From Gammaproteobacteria bacterium (lineage in GTDB: Bacteria; Pseudomonadota; Gammaproteobacteria; JAJPIJ01): a stretch of 64,000 nucleotides of DNA. Location: positions 108,927 to 172,926 of the forward strand of contig JAJVHZ010000011.1 in the NCBI GenBank assembly GCA_022072255.1, given 5' to 3'. Both the position numbers and the translations under genes were made by a program. The notes under the pieces were generated by a model. It was not told the origin of the DNA. It did no database searches and was given only the letters and a program-made list of their open reading frames with translations. This document shows positions 28,525 to 37,675 of the stretch, in pieces. Each line of letters begins with the position of its first letter. Within the stretch, counting starts at the first letter, position 1.

Positions 28525-28785
28525 ATGCAGGCGGTTGTCATCATCCTCAAGGTTCTGGCGCTGGCGCTGGCGATCGCGGGGCTGGTGGGGGGCGGGATCT
28601 GCACCCTGTGCGGTGCGGTGTGGTCGTTCGAGGACGCCGGTGTCGGCATGCAGATCGTGGGGATCTCGCTGCTGTTCGCCGTGCCGTCGTATTTCCTGAC
28701 GCGGCTGCTTTGGCGTTCGTTGAATCGGCGACCGGGCGCCGCGCCGGCGCCGAGTGAGCCTGCATCGTCGGGCGACGGCCCCTAG
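28525..28785 (+). CDS. Small membrane protein, paralog A (86 aa; signal-peptide-like N-terminus ending in GGGIC, then a second TM helix)
   Basis: MQAVVIILKVLALALAIAGLVGGGICTLCGAVWSFE...MQIVGISLLFAVPSYFLTRLLWRSLNRRPG aligns with the next ORF, sharing [KR]VL.L.L...LV.G.GIC.....F...M...I..L..L...F......R.L.R.R.G. Confidence 0.5.
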   Translation: MQAVVIILKVLALALAIAGLVGGGICTLCGAVWSFEDAGVGMQIVGISLLFAVPSYFLTRLLWRSLNRRPGAAPAPSEPASSGDGP

Positions 28786-28793
28786 GTTGGCGC

Positions 28794-29045
28794 ATGGAAA
28801 CGATCTTCACGGCGCTGTGGTGGATTATCCGGGTGCTCATCCTGCTGGGACTGTTCTGCCTGGTCGCCGGCACCGGCATCTGCGGCTACATCTACTACGA
28901 ATTCAGCGCCCAGTATCACCGCCCGGAAATGGCGGACTGGCTGTTCATCGGGGCGCTGGGGTCGCTGGCTGCGCTGTTCGGGTGGATCTTCTGGGTCGTG
29001 AAGCGAGCCTTGTTCCGGCCGCGGTCAGGCGCTGATGGCTCCTGA
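28794..29045 (+). CDS. Small membrane protein, paralog B (83 aa)
   Basis: METIFTALWWIIRVLILLGLFCLVAGTGICGYIYYEFS...MADWLFIGALGSLAALFGWIFWVVKRALFRPRSG. Lies 9 bp after paralog A, and its stop overlaps the next gene by 11 nt. Confidence 0.5.
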   Translation: METIFTALWWIIRVLILLGLFCLVAGTGICGYIYYEFSAQYHRPEMADWLFIGALGSLAALFGWIFWVVKRALFRPRSGADGS

Positions 29046-29778
29046 ATACGCGCTGGTCCTGCACGCGGCCTTCGAATGGGCCGCCATCCTCGCCGGCGCC
29101 CGGCTGTACTTTCGCGAGCGCGGGCTGCATGGCTTGCGCGCCGCCCTGCAGCCGCAGAATTACGCGGTGCTGACCGGCTGCCTGCTCGGCGCGGCGATCG
29201 GCAACAAGGCGGTGTTCTGGGTGGAGAATCCGCAGCTCTGGGACCCGGACTCCGGCGTCGCGCAGTTCTTCCTGGGCGGACAGTCGATGGTCGGCGGCCT
29301 GGTGGGCGGCTATCTCGGCGTCGAACTCGGCAAGGTGGTCGCGGCCGTGCGCCATTCCACCGGAGATCATTTCGTCTTCCCGATCCTGCTGGGGATCGCG
29401 ATCGGGCGCCTCGGATGCCTGCTCGCCGGACTTCACGATCAAACCTTCGGCGTCCAGACCAGCCTGGCCTGGGGTATCGATTTCGGCGACGGAATAAGGC
29501 GGCATCCCACCCAGCTCTACGAGATCCTGTTCGCGGGGCTGCTCTGGTGGGCGTTCCGACGCGCGCGCGCACGGCTGGCGGGCTCCCCGGGCCTGATGTT
29601 CAAGATCCTCCTTGCCGGCTACCTGTCATGGAGGCTGCTTGTCGACGCACTCAAGCCCGTCCCGTACGCCTATCCCATGGGCCTGAGCGGCATACAGATC
29701 GTGTGCGCGGTGGCGCTGGCGTTCTATCTGCCGCTGCTCATTGCGCAGTTGCTGCGGCGCGAGGCGGCGCGCGCATGA
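29035..29778 (+). CDS. Lgt-family (prolipoprotein diacylglyceryl transferase-like) polytopic membrane protein, with a divergent signature
   Basis: RRHPTQLYEILFAGLLWWAF matches the Lgt RHPSQLYE block. IAIGRLGCLLAG occupies the place of the Lgt G-R-x-G-N-F-x-N-G-E signature, with N replaced by C/L. About 7 TM segments. ATG 29035 verified. The stop overlaps the downstream radical SAM start (ATGA). Confidence 0.65.
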   Translation: MAPEYALVLHAAFEWAAILAGARLYFRERGLHGLRAALQPQNYAVLTGCLLGAAIGNKAVFWVENPQLWDPDSGVAQFFLGGQSMVGGLVGGYLGVELGKVVAAVRHSTGDHFVFPILLGIAIGRLGCLLAGLHDQTFGVQTSLAWGIDFGDGIRRHPTQLYEILFAGLLWWAFRRARARLAGSPGLMFKILLAGYLSWRLLVDALKPVPYAYPMGLSGIQIVCAVALAFYLPLLIAQLLRREAARA

Positions 29779-31208
29779 GCCGCAAGGCGAGGCCGTACCT
29801 CTTCTACGACACCACCAGCGCGGTGTGCACGACCTGTCTGCGCGTGATCGAGGCGAAGATCCTGCTCAAGGACGGGAAGGCGTACATGGAGAAGTGGTGT
29901 CCTGCCCACGGCACCGAGCGGGTGCTGGTAAGCGACGATGCCGACTACTACCGGCAGTGCCGCGAGCTGTGGATCAAGCCGCCGGAGATGCCGAATACGT
30001 TCAACACCCGCATGCAATACGGTTGTCCGTACGACTGCGGCCTGTGCCCGGACCACATGCAGCACTCCTGCCTCACGCTGCTGGAACTGACCGATCACTG
30101 CAACCTTCGCTGCCCGATCTGCTACGCAGGTTCGGGGCCGGAGCGCGCGGGCTACCGGACGCTGTCCGAGATCGTGTGCATGCTGGACGCCATCGTCGCC
30201 AACGAGGGCGAGCCGGACGTCGTGCAGCTCTCCGGCGGCGAGCCGACGCTGCATCCGGATTTCTTCGCAGTGCTCGATGCGGCCCGCGCGCGCGGAGTCC
30301 GGCACCTGATGGTGAACACCAACGGCGTGCGCCTGGCGCAGGACCGCGAGTTCTGCGCACGGCTGTCGGAATACCGGAGGGCTTTCGAGGTCTACCTGCA
30401 GTTCGACTCGCGGCGGCCGGAGGCGCTGAAGGAGATGCGCGGCGCGGATCTCACCGGCGTGCGCGAGCAGGCGCTGCAGCATCTCAACGAGTTCGACATT
30501 TCCACCACACTGGTGGTGACGCTGAAGAAGGGCGTCAACGACGAGGAGATCGGCGATATCATCGGCTACGCGCTCGGCCAGTCCTGCGTGCGCGGGGTGA
30601 CGTTGCAGCCGATACAGGACGCCGGCCGTGTGCAGGGCTACGACGCGAGAGTCCATCGGCTGACGGTGAGCGAGATTCGCCGCCGCATCGCCGAGCAGTC
30701 GGGCGTGTTCACGGCCGCGGACATCCTGCCCGTGCCCTGCAACCCGGACACACTGGCCATGGGTTATGCGCTGAAGGTCGGGGGTGAGGTCGTGGCGCTC
30801 ACACGCTACCTCGACCCTGCGGTCCTGGTCGAGGGCGGCCGCAACACGATCAGCTTCGAGCACGACGGCGAATTGAGGCGGCGCGTCTTCGACCTCTTTT
30901 CGACCAACCACTCGCCGGCCTCGCAGGCGAATTGCCTTGCCGAGCTGATGTGCTGCCTGCCCCGCGTCAGTGCGCCCGCGGAGCTGACGTATCACAACGT
31001 CTTCCGCGTCCTCATAGTGCAGTTCATGGACGCGCTGTCGCTGGACATCCGTGCCCTGAAGAAGTCATGCATCCATATCGTCCAGCCCGACGGCCGTCTC
31101 ATCCCCTTCGAGTCGTTCAATCTCCTCTACCGCGACGGCCGTGCCGGGCTGTTGCGGACGCTGCGGCATGAGGTCGTCCGCGCAACCCGGGCGCGCCGGA
31201 CCTCCTGA
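29775..31208 (+). CDS. Radical SAM enzyme with an N-terminal rubredoxin/Zn-ribbon-like Cys2...Cys-His motif and an extra CxxxCxxC motif (multi-cluster radical SAM)
   Basis: Canonical ELTDHCNLRCPICYAGSG (CX3CX2C) plus a glycine-rich SAM motif LSGGEPTLH. Upstream GCPYDCGLCPDH is a second CX3CX2C. N-terminus CTTC...WCPAHG. Further C-terminal cysteines (PVPCNPD, NCLAELMCCLP, KSCIHIV). The track 29076 start is an out-of-frame extension through the Lgt-like gene. Confidence 0.8.
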   Translation: MSRKARPYLFYDTTSAVCTTCLRVIEAKILLKDGKAYMEKWCPAHGTERVLVSDDADYYRQCRELWIKPPEMPNTFNTRMQYGCPYDCGLCPDHMQHSCLTLLELTDHCNLRCPICYAGSGPERAGYRTLSEIVCMLDAIVANEGEPDVVQLSGGEPTLHPDFFAVLDAARARGVRHLMVNTNGVRLAQDREFCARLSEYRRAFEVYLQFDSRRPEALKEMRGADLTGVREQALQHLNEFDISTTLVVTLKKGVNDEEIGDIIGYALGQSCVRGVTLQPIQDAGRVQGYDARVHRLTVSEIRRRIAEQSGVFTAADILPVPCNPDTLAMGYALKVGGEVVALTRYLDPAVLVEGGRNTISFEHDGELRRRVFDLFSTNHSPASQANCLAELMCCLPRVSAPAELTYHNVFRVLIVQFMDALSLDIRALKKSCIHIVQPDGRLIPFESFNLLYRDGRAGLLRTLRHEVVRATRARRTS

Positions 31209-33515: not shown

Positions 33516-33820
33516 CACGCACTGGTGGACGCGAGGCGATGCTGCGCCGGGGACGGGCGGGTGCGGGCGCGGTGATCCGACGACGCGGGCCCCGGGATCC
33601 GGTGCCCGGAACGGCCGGATCTCCGGGCGGCACCATGGCACGTTTCGTGAATCGACCAGACTGATTCTCCACCAATCGGCTGCGCGGCCGCGTCCTTGCC
33701 GGCGCCAGTTGCCGGGAGGATGGCCGAACAGTGGATGTCGCATCGAAAAATCAATAAGTTGTCTTCCGTGCCGGTCACCCCTGGGCGGTGCCCGGCAGCG
33801 CGGGAGTTTTGACGGCACCC

Positions 33821-36800
33821 ATGCGAATCAGAACGAGATTGGCAGTCGCGGCGCTCACGGCCTTCGCGGTGGCTGCCGTGCCGGGCGCATTGTTCTCGTA
33901 CCGGGTGACCCGCGAGCACGTCATCGCCGATGTCGCGCAGGAGGTCTCGGCGCACGTGACATGGCTCGCCACGCTGTTCCAATCCCGCGTGGTCACCGCC
34001 GAAAACACGCTGCCCGCGCTGCAGCGGCTGCTCGCCAGCGCGCTGGCGCAGCCGCCGCGGGCGGGGGAGCTCGAGGAATTCGACCGCCTGTTCGCGGCGG
34101 GCGACGACAGCGTCTACCGCAGTCGCCATGACGCGTTCGACGGCAAACGCGAGGCGGGCGCGTACATTCCGGGCTCCCCGCCGCTCGATGACGATCGCAA
34201 GCGCTTCTACGTGCGCGTGAAGGGAGTTCTCGACACCTTCGGCGCGCACACGAATCCGGATTTCCAGAATGTCTGGCTGCTCGATCACCATCGCGCCCTG
34301 GTGATATTCGATCGCCTGAAGCCGGACTTCGTGTTTCGGATGAGCCGCGAACAGGACTACACGCAGACGGCGTGGATGACCCTGACGGGGCCGGCCGCGA
34401 ACCCCGTGCGTACGCTGCGCTGGACTCCCGTCATTTTCGATCCCGTCCCGCGCACATGGATGGTGAGCGCGGTGTATCCGCTCGATGTCGGCGATGCCTG
34501 GCTCGGATCGGTGGGGTTCGATCTGCCGCTCGCGCAACTGACCGAGACGCTGGTGCACAGCAATCGCGAGTTCTCCGGCGTGGAGCATTTCCTGCTCGAC
34601 GAGAATGGCAGCTTCATATTGGCCGGCCCGTGGCAGTCGCAGCTCATGACGCGCGGACGGGCTCTCCCCGATCTCAGCCGCGAACCGGAACTGGACCGTC
34701 TGCTGCGCTGGCAGGCGACCCTGGACGCGGACGCCGGCCGTTCGCGCGTGGTGACGATGCGCGGCGTGCGCTACCTGGCGGTCCCCGCCACCCTCAAGAC
34801 GCTCAACTGGAAGTACGTCCGCCTCATCCCGTTGTCGGAGGTGCTCGCGCCCGTGCACCAGCTTTTCCTGCTCATCGGCAAGTCGGCCCTGCTGATCATG
34901 CTGTTGAGCGGTGTGGTCGTCGTGCTGGTCACACACGGCACGCTCGTGCAGCCGATATTGCGCCTGGCGACGGCGGCCCGCACCTACGGCAGCGGCGACA
35001 CGCGCATCCGCTTGGGCAAGGGTGGCGACGACGAGCTCGCGGAACTGGCCCTGAGCTTCGATGCGATGGCCGATGGACTGGAGCGCAGCCAGACCGAACT
35101 GCGCCAGCGCGAGGCGCGCTACCGCACCGTCGTGAACAGCGTGCGCGAGGTGATCTTCCAGCTGGGCGGCGAGGGACGGTGGCTGTTTCTCAGCGAGGCG
35201 TGGACCGCGCTGAGCGGGTACGCCATCGAGGACACGCTGGGCCGCAGCGTATACGAGTTCGTCGCCGTCGAGGACGTCGACGGGATCCGGGAACAGATCA
35301 GGGCGCTGACGAACCACGAGATCGAGGCGTGTCGCTGTGAATTCCGGCTCCGCACCCGCTCGGGGGACAGGCTCTGGGTCGAATTCCTCGCACAAACGGC
35401 GCGTTCGAGCGACGGCGAGGCCGTCTTCACGGGCACCATGGACGACGTCAGCGAGCGTTATTACCAGCGCGAGGTCAGCGCGTTGCTGCGACGGGCCGAG
35501 GAGTTCGTCAACGAGGGCTACCGCACCGAGCAGCTGTTGCAGTACTTCTGCGAGAAGCTCGCCTGGCTGTTCGGCTTCCCGCTCGTGGTCGCCGCGCTCA
35601 ACCGGGAGCAGAAGCTCGGCATCGTCGGCCGTTCGGACTGCGAGGTGGACTTCCTGCGCACGCTGAGCGGCTCGAGACGCCAGAACGCCGAGGTCGAGCT
35701 GTACGCGCGCGCGTTCGCAGAGGACAAGCCGCTCACGCTGACCGGCGAGGACGACGAGTCCGGCGAGTGGGCCCGGTCCGCCGCGCGCGCCGGGATCGGC
35801 TCGGCGATGGTCGTCCCAATCCGCATCCACGAGCAGCTCGGCGCGCTGCTCGGATTCCACATGCGCGGCAACGCCGGGCTCGCAGCCGAGCGCGTGCAGC
35901 GCATGGAGGAGCTCTGCCGGCGCATCGGCGGCGTGCTGCGCAGGGCCGAGGATCTGCAGTGGCTGCGGTTGCAGCGCACCGCGCTGGAGTCGGTGGCGAA
36001 CGGCATCATGATCGTGGACACCGATCACGAGGTCATCTGGATCAATCCGGCAATGGAACGGCTGAGCGGCTACCGCCGCGAGGACGTGATCGGCAGGAGT
36101 ACGAGGTTGTTTTCGGCCGGCTTCAGTTCCAGCGCTCAGCCGAGCGAGCTCGCCGAAGCGCGGCGGCGGGGCGGAACGTGGTCCGGAGAGATCGTCAATC
36201 GACGCAAGGACGGCAGCCTCTATACGGTGCACGAAACGGTCACGGCGTTGACCGATGCCTCCGGGAAGATCACGCACTTCGTCGCGGTACAGGCCGATAT
36301 CACCGCGCTGAAGGACGCGGAGGCGCGGCTGCAGCACATGGCCACGCACGATGCGTTGACCGGACTGTCCAATCGTCTGCTGTTCCGCGAACGCCTGAAG
36401 GAGGCGTTCTCGCGCGCCAACCGCTCCGGCAACCAGGTAGCGGTGCTACTGCTCGACCTGGATCGCTTCAAGGCGATCAATGACACCCTCGGCCACATGC
36501 GCGCCGACGAGCTGCTGCAGGCGGTCGCCGGCCGCTTGCACGGCTGCCTGCGCGAACACGACACCGTCGCCCGGCTCGGCGGCGACGAATTCACGGTTCT
36601 GCTGCCGGAGCTGGATACCTCCGAACACGCCGCCGTGGTGGCCGGCAAGATCCTCTCCTCGCTGAGCGAGCCGTTCGATATCGCCGGGCAGCCCGTGACT
36701 ACGACGACCAGCATCGGGATCAGCATCTACCCGCACGACGGCATCGACATCGACGACATACTGCAGCGCGCGGACGCCGCGATGTACCAGTCCAAGGCGA

Positions 36801-37675
36801 TGGGCCGGAACACTTACCAGTTCTACACGCGCGCGATACACGAACGCAGCATGCAGCGCCTGAGCATCGAGAAGGAGTTGCGCCGAGCGGTCGAACACAA
36901 CGAGTTCGTGCTGCATTTCCAGCCGATTGCCGATACCCGCAGCGGCACCATCGTCGGCGCCGAGGCGCTGGTCCGCTGGCGGCATCCCGTGCGGGGAGTG
37001 CTGCCGCCGACGGCGTTCATCGAGGTGGCCGAGGATTCCGGCCTCATACTGGCGATCGGAGACTGGGTGCTGCGTGCCGCGTGCGAGCAGGGCGCGGCGT
37101 GGGAGGCGCAGGGCATCCGGGACATGGAGGTGTCGGTGAATCTTTCGACGCGGCAGTTCCGCCAGTCCGACCTGGTGGAGCGGGTCGCGCACGCGTGCGC
37201 GCATGCGGGATTCAGCTCGCGCAGCATGCACATCGAGCTGACCGAGAGCCTGATGATGGACGACATGGAACAGGGCATAAGGACCATGAAGGCGTTGAAG
37301 GAGCTCGGCGTCAGCATCTCCATCGACGACTTCGGCGTCGGCTACTCGAGCCTTGCCTACCTGAAGCGATTCCCGCTGGACTCGCTGAAGATCGATCGCT
37401 CCTTCATCGAGACGGTGCCGCAGAATTCCGAGGCGACCGCGATCGCCAGCACGATACTGGCGATGGCCCGCACCCTCGGTCTGAGTGTCGTTGCCGAGGG
37501 CGTCGAGAACGAGGCGCAGCTCGAATTCCTGCGCGCGCTGGGCTGTCCGCGTTATCAGGGCTTTCTGCTCGGCAAACCGATGTCCGCCGAGGAACTTGGC
37601 GCATTCATCCGCCGCGGCCGTGCGCGCCAGGCGGAGCTACTCTCGCCGGTCGCGGCGATCCGCCCCGCCATCTAG
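33821..37675 (+). CDS. Large membrane sensor: periplasmic domain-TM-HAMP-PAS-GAF-PAS-GGDEF-EAL
   Basis: Signal/TM MRIRTRLAVAALTAFAVAAVPG, then a ~330-aa periplasmic region and TM LLIMLLSGVVVVLV. GGDEF RLGGDEFTVLL. EAL EALVRW...DDFGVGYSSL. The 33788 track start adds 11 codons. Confidence 0.8.
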   Translation: MRIRTRLAVAALTAFAVAAVPGALFSYRVTREHVIADVAQEVSAHVTWLATLFQSRVVTAENTLPALQRLLASALAQPPRAGELEEFDRLFAAGDDSVYRSRHDAFDGKREAGAYIPGSPPLDDDRKRFYVRVKGVLDTFGAHTNPDFQNVWLLDHHRALVIFDRLKPDFVFRMSREQDYTQTAWMTLTGPAANPVRTLRWTPVIFDPVPRTWMVSAVYPLDVGDAWLGSVGFDLPLAQLTETLVHSNREFSGVEHFLLDENGSFILAGPWQSQLMTRGRALPDLSREPELDRLLRWQATLDADAGRSRVVTMRGVRYLAVPATLKTLNWKYVRLIPLSEVLAPVHQLFLLIGKSALLIMLLSGVVVVLVTHGTLVQPILRLATAARTYGSGDTRIRLGKGGDDELAELALSFDAMADGLERSQTELRQREARYRTVVNSVREVIFQLGGEGRWLFLSEAWTALSGYAIEDTLGRSVYEFVAVEDVDGIREQIRALTNHEIEACRCEFRLRTRSGDRLWVEFLAQTARSSDGEAVFTGTMDDVSERYYQREVSALLRRAEEFVNEGYRTEQLLQYFCEKLAWLFGFPLVVAALNREQKLGIVGRSDCEVDFLRTLSGSRRQNAEVELYARAFAEDKPLTLTGEDDESGEWARSAARAGIGSAMVVPIRIHEQLGALLGFHMRGNAGLAAERVQRMEELCRRIGGVLRRAEDLQWLRLQRTALESVANGIMIVDTDHEVIWINPAMERLSGYRREDVIGRSTRLFSAGFSSSAQPSELAEARRRGGTWSGEIVNRRKDGSLYTVHETVTALTDASGKITHFVAVQADITALKDAEARLQHMATHDALTGLSNRLLFRERLKEAFSRANRSGNQVAVLLLDLDRFKAINDTLGHMRADELLQAVAGRLHGCLREHDTVARLGGDEFTVLLPELDTSEHAAVVAGKILSSLSEPFDIAGQPVTTTTSIGISIYPHDGIDIDDILQRADAAMYQSKAMGRNTYQFYTRAIHERSMQRLSIEKELRRAVEHNEFVLHFQPIADTRSGTIVGAEALVRWRHPVRGVLPPTAFIEVAEDSGLILAIGDWVLRAACEQGAAWEAQGIRDMEVSVNLSTRQFRQSDLVERVAHACAHAGFSSRSMHIELTESLMMDDMEQGIRTMKALKELGVSISIDDFGVGYSSLAYLKRFPLDSLKIDRSFIETVPQNSEATAIASTILAMARTLGLSVVAEGVENEAQLEFLRALGCPRYQGFLLGKPMSAEELGAFIRRGRARQAELLSPVAAIRPAI

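Follow-up and report, generated by a model that had tools for sequence, protein, structure and literature searches.

Why should two small membrane proteins, each with a conserved cysteine, be encoded directly upstream of a relative of the lipoprotein-modifying enzyme Lgt and of a radical S-adenosylmethionine (radical SAM) enzyme? The question is raised by a 64,000-nucleotide (nt) stretch of DNA from a gammaproteobacterium (GenBank assembly GCA_022072255.1, contig JAJVHZ010000011.1, positions 108,927 to 172,926 of the forward strand), which we refer to as the window and in which two open reading frames (ORFs), ORF A and ORF B, precede the two enzyme genes. The four genes form a tight cassette in the order ORF A, an 8-nt gap, ORF B, an 11-nt overlap, the Lgt-like gene, a 4-nt overlap (ATGA) and the radical SAM gene (Table 1). 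Our analysis reveals that ORF A and ORF B belong to a new family of small proteins with a single invariant cysteine and without a curated model, which we call hairpins after their predicted two-helix membrane topology. This family is near-exclusively linked to a paralogue of Lgt that retains the phosphatidylglycerol pocket and to an enzyme resembling the archaeal tetraether synthase (Tes).

A new family of small, predicted membrane hairpins

Both ORFs are genuine genes on which purifying selection acts. They lie where an earlier note on this DNA, made from the sequence alone, had placed two membrane-protein ORFs, and hydropathy gives two hydrophobic segments in each. Their G+C content at third codon positions (GC3) is 0.86 (A) and 0.87 (B), as against 0.85 and 0.89 in the neighbouring genes, and the ratio of non-synonymous to synonymous substitution (dN/dS), taken against orthologues from the closest related locus (L001), is 0.26 for A and 0.40 for B; the Lgt-like and radical SAM genes have ratios of 0.23 and 0.16, respectively. 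The same four genes, with products of 86, 83, 247 and 477 amino acids (aa), have been called independently in public assemblies. An identical copy of the ORF A protein (P0052) occurs on 21 public contigs, and orthologues of ORF B are represented by P0001-P0004, P0260 and P0264.

Direct comparison of the two proteins is not significant: BLASTP gives E = 4.9, and their Smith-Waterman score was reached by 273 of 2000 shuffles, no better than chance. The identity of about 30% given in the earlier note falls to 22% in a MAFFT alignment. Paralogy is therefore argued from profiles. Small ORFs that precede Lgt-like genes in other genomes, neither the window nor L001 being included, were used to train a profile; it matches ORF A with 47.5 bits (E 5.8e-14) and ORF B with 35.8 bits (E 2.7e-10), while the best of the 786 other stop-free segments of the window scores 5.8 bits with the same profile. 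Alignment of the A-orthologues with the B-orthologues by hhalign (E 1.6e-4, probability 50%) covers helix 1 only. Thus, ORF A and ORF B are anciently diverged paralogues of one unannotated family, and the old duplication with a maintained core that the note had suspected is borne out by profiles from other loci. Several checks are independent of the G..C filter with which the training set was chosen: a plain tblastn search with ORF A matches the upstream ORFs of nine other loci (E 1e-8 to 2e-4); the profile detects untrained copies lying between Lgt-like and radical SAM genes; and a profile search of 5.8 billion proteins and an exhaustive HMMER search of 1.84 billion cluster representatives gave 155 and 170 matches, respectively. 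ORF B, used as a single-sequence query, recovered 4 clusters only.

Both proteins open helix 1 with a basic residue (K9 in A, R13 in B) that is followed by 16 uncharged, mostly hydrophobic residues, and in both a cysteine stands 17 residues past the basic one. In the LV-G-x-G-I-C motif that had been read as invariant, the G-x-G-I-C core is real in both ORFs, but the 'LV' is offset by one residue between them. The residue preceding the cysteine (position -1) is isoleucine in each, as had been noticed, in the contexts G-G-I-C (A) and T-G-I-C (B). Conservation within each line is strict: C26 and C29 are both invariant among the orthologues of A (n=8), as are G26, T27, G28, C30 and G31 among those of B (n=7).

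Hairpins listed in two database searches are mostly 60-125 aa long. ORF A has no match in Pfam-A or NCBIfam and ORF B has sub-threshold chance matches only, while 53 members compared with the same databases gave no match above threshold and no consistent family. Their public names are 'hypothetical' or 'uncharacterized', except for a TehA-like permease and an MHYT sensor, both plainly mislabelled by JGI. The alignment displays a long glycine-rich helix 1 that starts with K or R in 74 of 78 sequences, a variable, net-acidic loop, a helix 2 with one conserved glycine, and a basic tail. The sole invariant feature is the cysteine, in the context [AFG]-G-[LIAV]-C-[GSTA], which occurs in two registers three residues apart (alignment columns 26 and 29). 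Among 79 locus-derived members, 41 use the first register, 30 the second, 8 both and 0 neither; the corresponding counts for 144 new representatives are 69, 58, 16 and 1, the cysteine-less exception being a spurious 950-aa repeat protein. Across 341 distinct sequences, position -3 is A, F or G, position -2 is G in 80% and position +1 is G in 76%, while position -1 is L, I, A or V in 311 and L in 242 (71%). The distance from K/R to the cysteine is 20 residues in 171 of these sequences and 17 in 132 (303 together).

Variant architectures also occur, including an extra N-terminal transmembrane helix or an N-terminal CxxC...CxxC zinc ribbon (P0275, P0296, P0302, P0328, P0388; P0387) and two tandem double hairpins (P0301, P0355). 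In Elusimicrobiota, a zinc-ribbon membrane protein encoded upstream of the Lgt-like gene (L071:3690-4304) may be a very distant member.

High-GC DNA yields many spurious ORFs, and Phage_holin_3_6 gives sub-threshold matches (E of at least 0.0016) to 6 of the 53 members searched. Chance ORFs, or independent holin-like or toxin-like membrane-active proteins, are nonetheless largely refuted as explanations and keep next to no probability. Purifying selection, GC3 like that of the neighbours, a fixed position in the cassette and an invariant cysteine kept across orders and phyla all argue against them, and PADLOC returned a generic radical SAM match alone, with no phage or defence context.

The distribution of charge predicts that hairpins have both termini in the cytoplasm: the counts are 1.6 K+R for the N-terminus, 0.66 K+R against 1.39 D+E for the short periplasmic loop, and 3.9 K+R for the tail. 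An AlphaFold2 model of ORF A places helices at residues 2-34 and 38-66, followed by a disordered tail. Since the hairpin turn of the model falls at 35-37, Cys26 and Cys29, which precede the end of helix 1 by 8 and 5 residues, are predicted to lie in its outer-leaflet third, near the periplasmic leaflet.

This arrangement recalls bacterial prolipoproteins, which likewise have a cytoplasmic K/R, a hydrophobic segment and a cysteine at the outer leaflet; a distance of 17-20 residues is the length of the n-region plus h-region of a lipoprotein signal peptide, and ORF A and ORF B both have the n- and h-regions of lipoprotein precursors. The hairpins depart from prolipoproteins in the cysteine context, which is G-[LIAV]-C-G rather than L-[AS]-[GA]-C, and in the second helix, with which no cleaved mature domain is expected. 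The lipobox [LVI][ASTVI][GAS]C is absent from A (G-G-I-C, T-L-C) and from B (T-G-I-C). That the cysteine stands outside a canonical lipobox, as the note had observed, holds for the family, in which a strict lipobox fits 2 of the 341 sequences and a PROSITE-like rule 26. It is thus most improbable that hairpins are ordinary precursors handled by the housekeeping Lgt, LspA and Lnt and placed beside the cassette enzymes by coincidence: the N-terminal K/R, the hydrophobic stretch and the signal-peptide spacing would suit such a role, but the missing lipobox, the bulky -1 residue, the transmembrane helix after the cysteine and the near-absolute linkage to the Lgt paralogue argue against it.

Linkage to an Lgt paralogue and a Tes-like enzyme

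The radical SAM protein of the window was scanned against one genome per GTDB species, which recovered no fewer than 585 relatives; the 80 best-matching loci (L001-L080) were retained. An Lgt-like homologue is present in 75 of them, on the same strand and upstream in 71. Of the five loci without one, four include less than 500 nt of sequence 5' of the radical SAM gene, but L069 lacks an Lgt-like gene although 5 kilobases (kb) are covered on that side. A six-frame profile scan of the same loci places all significant hairpin matches inside the cassette. The gene usually lies directly upstream of the Lgt-like gene, overlapping it or within a few tens of bases, while L021, L038, L055 and L057 have a copy between the Lgt-like and radical SAM genes. 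By eye, convincing copies can also be recognised there in the Acidobacteriota loci L077 and L079, the latter with two in tandem. Beside a single enzyme pair there is one hairpin copy in 36 loci, two in 8 and three in 3. In the reverse direction, the profile-found members that were looked up lie directly 5' of genes for PF01790 and Zn_ribbon_HMPTM/Radical_SAM proteins, with 4-nt overlaps. The earlier note had made its reading depend on homologues being linked to the downstream enzymes in other genomes, and this linkage is found in 59 of the 80 loci (E < 1e-4) and in five of the five reverse lookups. The radical SAM and Lgt-like genes themselves are kept as a pair across many phyla, at 60-70% identity of the radical SAM protein, with or without hairpins.

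The Lgt-like protein matches the Pfam LGT family (PF01790) with 60.5 bits (cut-off 24.9; E 1.9e-16) over profile positions 14-237 of 240, while it stays below the Lgt equivalog cut-offs (TIGR00544, 29.3 against 118.9 bits; NF000778, 31.2 against 334). By these scores it is a true PF01790 member but not an Lgt equivalog. We compared 66 cassette Lgt-like proteins with E. coli Lgt, in E. coli numbering. Like Lgt, they keep G99, G104, G142, R143, G145, H196, P197, Y201, E202, Y235, R239 and the acidic residue at 243 (D in 52, E in 13), as well as the HPxQLYE motif; R143 is kept in 66 of 66, R239 and Y235 in 65, and G142, G145, H196, P197 and Y201 in 65-66. Unlike Lgt, they have uniform changes at Y26H (65 of 66), H103V (65 of 66) and N146C (66 of 66), and also R246K and W256G, while a deletion has removed E151 and G154, and little of the head domain is left. 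E. coli Lgt is intolerant of mutation at H103, Y26, E151, R143, R239, E243 and R246, and its pocket of R143 and R239 activates the glycerol C3-O bond of phosphatidylglycerol (PMC4728403). Because the pocket residues are kept, R143 and R239 among them, the paralogue has probably kept the ability to bind a glycerophospholipid at the periplasmic leaflet and to activate it.

The cysteine at the N146 position (C128, codon 29416-29418) stands beside the catalytic arginine in a signature G-R-[LI]-G-C, and a second cysteine, C224, is invariant in a 37-sequence alignment of the paralogues. In Myxococcota the Lgt-like gene is divergently oriented and the signature reads G-R-I-G-C-F-L-[GA]-G-C-C. An AlphaFold2 model of the window protein has a predicted local distance difference test score (pLDDT) of 88.6. 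The paralogue has 1864 homologues, about 243-260 aa long among the 120 listed. They are publicly annotated as prolipoprotein diacylglyceryl transferase, which is likely to be a widespread mis-annotation.

The radical SAM enzyme resembles Tes, or GDGT-MAS (MJ0619, PDB 7TOL, NF045702), in domain architecture, and matches 7TOL over nearly its full length (E 4e-63). It retains the rubredoxin motif (CX2CX20CX2H, with H45 in the window protein), the N-terminal [4Fe-4S] motif (CX3CX2C..H) and the radical SAM motif (CX3CX2C), whose cysteines (C18/C21/C42, C84/C88/C91 and C109/C113/C116, respectively) are invariant in 81 of 81 sequences. Unlike Tes, it is nearly always paired with the Lgt paralogue in the loci examined, and its C-terminal cluster site is replaced, with the changes C438I, M439V, C455S and C470E relative to 7TOL. 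Met439 has been reported as a labile ligand of this site, and its cysteine ligands are deduced from the alignment with 7TOL; C456 (C432 here) alone is conserved, and the archaeal-invariant Y459 is isoleucine in the window enzyme. In Tes, a lipid-tail-coupling enzyme, the C-terminal cluster forms an S-C bond with the lipid (PMC9433317). The replacements suggest that the sulfur-donating cluster is rewired or absent in the Tes-like enzyme. Four cysteines (99, 322, 393 and 394) are invariant and specific to its clade, and 322, 393 and 394 might build a different cluster site.

Several small cysteine-bearing genes beside a radical SAM enzyme also call to mind sactipeptide and ranthipeptide cassettes, which share the presence of 1-3 such genes in variable copy number. 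Could hairpins be ribosomal-peptide-like precursors, given a cysteine thioether by the radical SAM enzyme and then cleaved and released as a bioactive peptide? Peptide-maturase models do match the enzyme, but at ~30-50 bits only, a small fraction of its Tes and TrsS scores, and its nearly full-length 7TOL match puts it in the Tes lineage. No leader/core organisation is apparent, and no protease or exporter was found among the genes examined at the cassettes. The products are stable-looking integral membrane hairpins of two helices with a basic cytoplasmic tail, and their cysteine is predicted to lie across the membrane from the cytoplasmic enzyme. A peptide precursor is therefore very unlikely.

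The surroundings of the cassette in related loci bring in further lipid functions. In 34 of the 80 loci (Burkholderiales, Rhodocyclales), a fusion of a major facilitator superfamily (MFS) transporter and an acyltransferase, matching LplT and the acyltransferase part of Aas, is encoded by the gene that immediately precedes the cassette in the same orientation, ~2.3 kb before the radical SAM gene. LplT and Aas recycle lysophospholipids of the periplasmic leaflet, notably those arising from lipoprotein N-acylation. In five looked-up loci the fusion gene overlaps the hairpin gene by 4 nt, and the translationally coupled operon (L082-L087, for example L083:308-6464), which ends with the cassette, consists of YiaAB (annotated in 3 of the 5), a hypothetical protein, DUF2145, the MFS/acyltransferase fusion, one or more hairpins, LGT and radical SAM. 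The LplT/Aas-like neighbour hints at turnover of membrane lipids or at stress as a setting for expression. The window differs from this operon in having mgtE upstream instead.

About nine loci have an additional gene between those for the Lgt-like and radical SAM proteins, coding for a predicted lipobox protein. The insert of Oxalobacteraceae encodes a 260-310-aa protein (L025:4186-5004, L028:4073-4999, L039:4186-5004, L043:4222-5004; also L041 and L048), whose signal peptide ends in ...L-[IV]-G-G-T-G-C as read in L025, L028 and L043, and which in Collimonas (L025) carries a Sel1 repeat. The inserts of Rhodocyclales (L010:4240-5004, L013:3627-4163, L026:4321-5004) are other, unrelated proteins with canonical lipoboxes (LLQAC, ICAC/ISAC, LLAAC). 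A hairpin profile restricted to helix 1 does not recognise the signal peptides of the inserted proteins, which therefore give context without showing homology, and the likeness between GGTGC in the inserts and GTGIC in ORF B is anecdotal.

Hairpins as candidate lipid acceptors

From the position of the hairpin genes, their variation in copy number and the place of the cysteine, we tentatively propose, with somewhat less than even confidence, that hairpins are dedicated, uncleaved acceptors of cysteine lipidation by the Lgt paralogue, or its covalent lipid carriers; the note had likewise suspected precursors or substrates of an adjacent modifying enzyme. The paralogue would move a glyceryl-lipid group from a membrane phospholipid onto the thiol of the hairpin cysteine at the periplasmic leaflet, the glycine-rich flank allowing the cysteine to reach the pocket. 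Signal peptidase II would leave the lipidated hairpin uncleaved because of the L, I or V at -1 and the second helix after the cysteine. The cytoplasmic, membrane-associated Tes-like enzyme would then act by a radical mechanism on hydrocarbon tails, either those of the attached lipid or those of its donor. An acceptor role is suggested by the K/R-to-cysteine spacing, which is that of a lipoprotein signal peptide; by the helix-loosening glycines that flank the cysteine; by the 1-3 copies beside a single enzyme pair; by paralogues that are divergent yet individually conserved; and by the lack of any fusion of a hairpin to an enzyme among the 170 representative clusters. The involvement of lipid is suggested by the relationship of the radical SAM enzyme to GDGT-MAS, by the LplT/Aas-like gene of the 34 operons and by the lipobox inserts.

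Hairpins may instead be non-catalytic accessory or structural subunits of a complex of the Lgt-like and radical SAM proteins that acts on free phospholipid, converting it, for example, to a macrocyclic or membrane-spanning lipid. They would then serve as scaffold, regulator or membrane tether, and their cysteine would pair with C128 or C224 or serve the active site. The enzyme pair is kept across phyla with or without hairpins, as if its chemistry needed no hairpin everywhere; translational coupling suggests co-assembly; the Lgt-like clade has its own invariant cysteine beside R143 and has lost residues essential in Lgt; and the glycine-rich helix 1 (G-x-G-x-C-G..G) resembles a helix-packing surface. 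A subunit would not be expected, however, to vary between one and three copies beside one enzyme pair, or to be only ~20-30% identical outside the cysteine motif where the enzymes are 50-70% identical, and no hairpin-Lgt fusion was found among the 120 listed Lgt-like homologues, in addition to the representative clusters above. A subunit role is the main rival of the acceptor role, and we consider it somewhat less probable. At two loci from metagenome assemblies (L023:3943-5001, L015:3907-5001), the frame of the small ORF continues into the Lgt-like gene, which may be a natural fusion or an indel error; because such indels are possible, these read-throughs were not counted as evidence for fusion.

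Five points weigh against the proposal that hairpins are lipid acceptors. First, the Lgt paralogue is without residues essential in Lgt (H103V, Y26H, N146C; E151 and G154 deleted) and may not transfer to cysteine. Second, the hairpin motif departs from the lipobox at -1. Third, the radical SAM enzyme would be unable to act on the hairpin cysteine directly, because it is cytoplasmic and the cysteine is predicted near the periplasmic leaflet. Fourth, no hairpin gene was detected within 5 kb of the enzyme pair in Myxococcota, Elusimicrobiota, Omnitrophota, Longimicrobium and most Acidobacteriota loci, so that hairpins are either no obligate partner of the pair or encoded elsewhere. Finally, the filter on the training set biases part of the profile evidence towards the motif.

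The acceptor proposal can be extended to an undescribed pathway in aerobic Proteobacteria, in which the Lgt paralogue links a glycerolipid by a thioether to the intramembrane cysteine of the hairpin and the Tes-like enzyme joins a tail of this lipid to a second lipid, giving a protein-anchored macrocyclic or membrane-spanning lipid of the inner membrane. We regard this as a speculative and decidedly unlikely outcome. If it were true, it would explain the role of the proteobacterial 'Tes homologues', which would not be free branched tetraether (brGDGT) synthases, and with such a protein-anchored, cross-linked lipid as its product the cassette could be categorically new. A direct thioether from the radical SAM enzyme to the hairpin cysteine is attractive given the missing sulfur-donating ligands of Tes, but was down-weighted because the predicted topology puts the cysteine near the periplasmic leaflet and because other invariant cysteines could rebuild the cluster.

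Relation to known systems and surrounding sequence

Among the NCBIfam models, the TrsS radical SAM (seleno)protein (NF045646) matches the radical SAM enzyme best, over its full length and with 314 bits, which probably makes TrsS the closest Tes-related clade with a name. Neither this score, against a cut-off of 490 bits, nor that of the Tes model (NF045702; 268 against 450) suffices for membership, and the window gene, unlike that of a selenoprotein, has no in-frame TGA. TrsS was reportedly described by Haft and Tolstoy in 2025. A literature search, in which that TrsS paper was not covered, found no description of the Lgt-like partner, the hairpin family or their cassette. We know of no production of membrane-spanning lipids in the host bacteria of the cassette.

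Divergent Lgt-like membrane enzymes whose catalytic residues are changed and which may be substrate-selective have been reported, namely the archaeal AliA/AliB and a second Lgt paralogue of Mycobacterium smegmatis (PMC12462473). Their substrates, whether established or proposed, are ordinary lipobox proteins, and no pairing with a radical SAM enzyme or with dedicated hairpins has been reported for them.

The two studies in which the archaeal tetraether synthase was identified mention hundreds of bacterial homologues without an assigned function, including some in Proteobacteria (PMC8941075, PMC9433317), and one of the two proposes bacterial homologues as candidates for brGDGT synthesis. In a later study, Tes homologues did not track the known bacterial producers of membrane-spanning lipids (bioRxiv 10.1101/2022.04.21.487849). 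Our analysis pairs a large clade of these bacterial homologues with a non-canonical Lgt paralogue and, in Proteobacteria, joins the pair to 1-3 cysteine-bearing hairpins. Such an association speaks for chemistry in which protein lipidation meets lipid-tail coupling, rather than for the making of free tetraethers. The cassette thus combines known kinds of chemistry, the Lgt-type lipidation of cysteine and the radical SAM chemistry of lipid tails, in an undescribed arrangement, and culturable carriers (Collimonas, Massilia, Roseateles, Zoogloea and Methylococcus) make it testable.

Table 1. Features of the hairpin cassette in the window
Feature	Coordinates	Strand	Evidence
ORF A, 86-aa two-helix hairpin membrane protein, Cys-hairpin family	28525..28785	+	sequence, hydropathy, profile, AlphaFold2
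ORF A motif G22-G-G-I-C26-T-L-C29-G30	28588..28614	+	Cys codons 28600-28602, 28609-28611
ORF B, 83 aa, second divergent member of the Cys-hairpin family	28794..29045	+	sequence, profile, orthologues
ORF B motif G26-T-G-I-C30-G31	28869..28886	+	Cys codon 28881-28883
Non-canonical Lgt paralogue, 247 aa, signature G-R-L-G-C	29035..29778	+	Pfam LGT, residue comparison with E. coli Lgt
Tes-like (GDGT-MAS-like) radical SAM enzyme, 477 aa	29775..31208	+	Pfam Radical_SAM + Zn_ribbon_HMPTM, PDB 7TOL match

The four-gene unit is flanked by mgtE, 261 nt upstream, and by rlmKL, 99 nt downstream. A scan of 27.8-31.6 kb gave no match to promoters or Rfam families, and one terminator-like site where 1.7 are expected by chance. 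On the 3' side of rlmKL, a 1295-aa membrane-anchored multidomain protein (33788-37675, + strand) resembles a PAS/GGDEF/EAL-type signalling protein by its translation, and is not kept beside the cassette elsewhere. The radical SAM frame is itself open for ~700 nt upstream of the true start, which creates a 710-aa shadow ORF (29076-31208, + strand) that overlaps the Lgt-like gene in another frame; the start at ATG 29775 is backed by public gene calls and by homologues.

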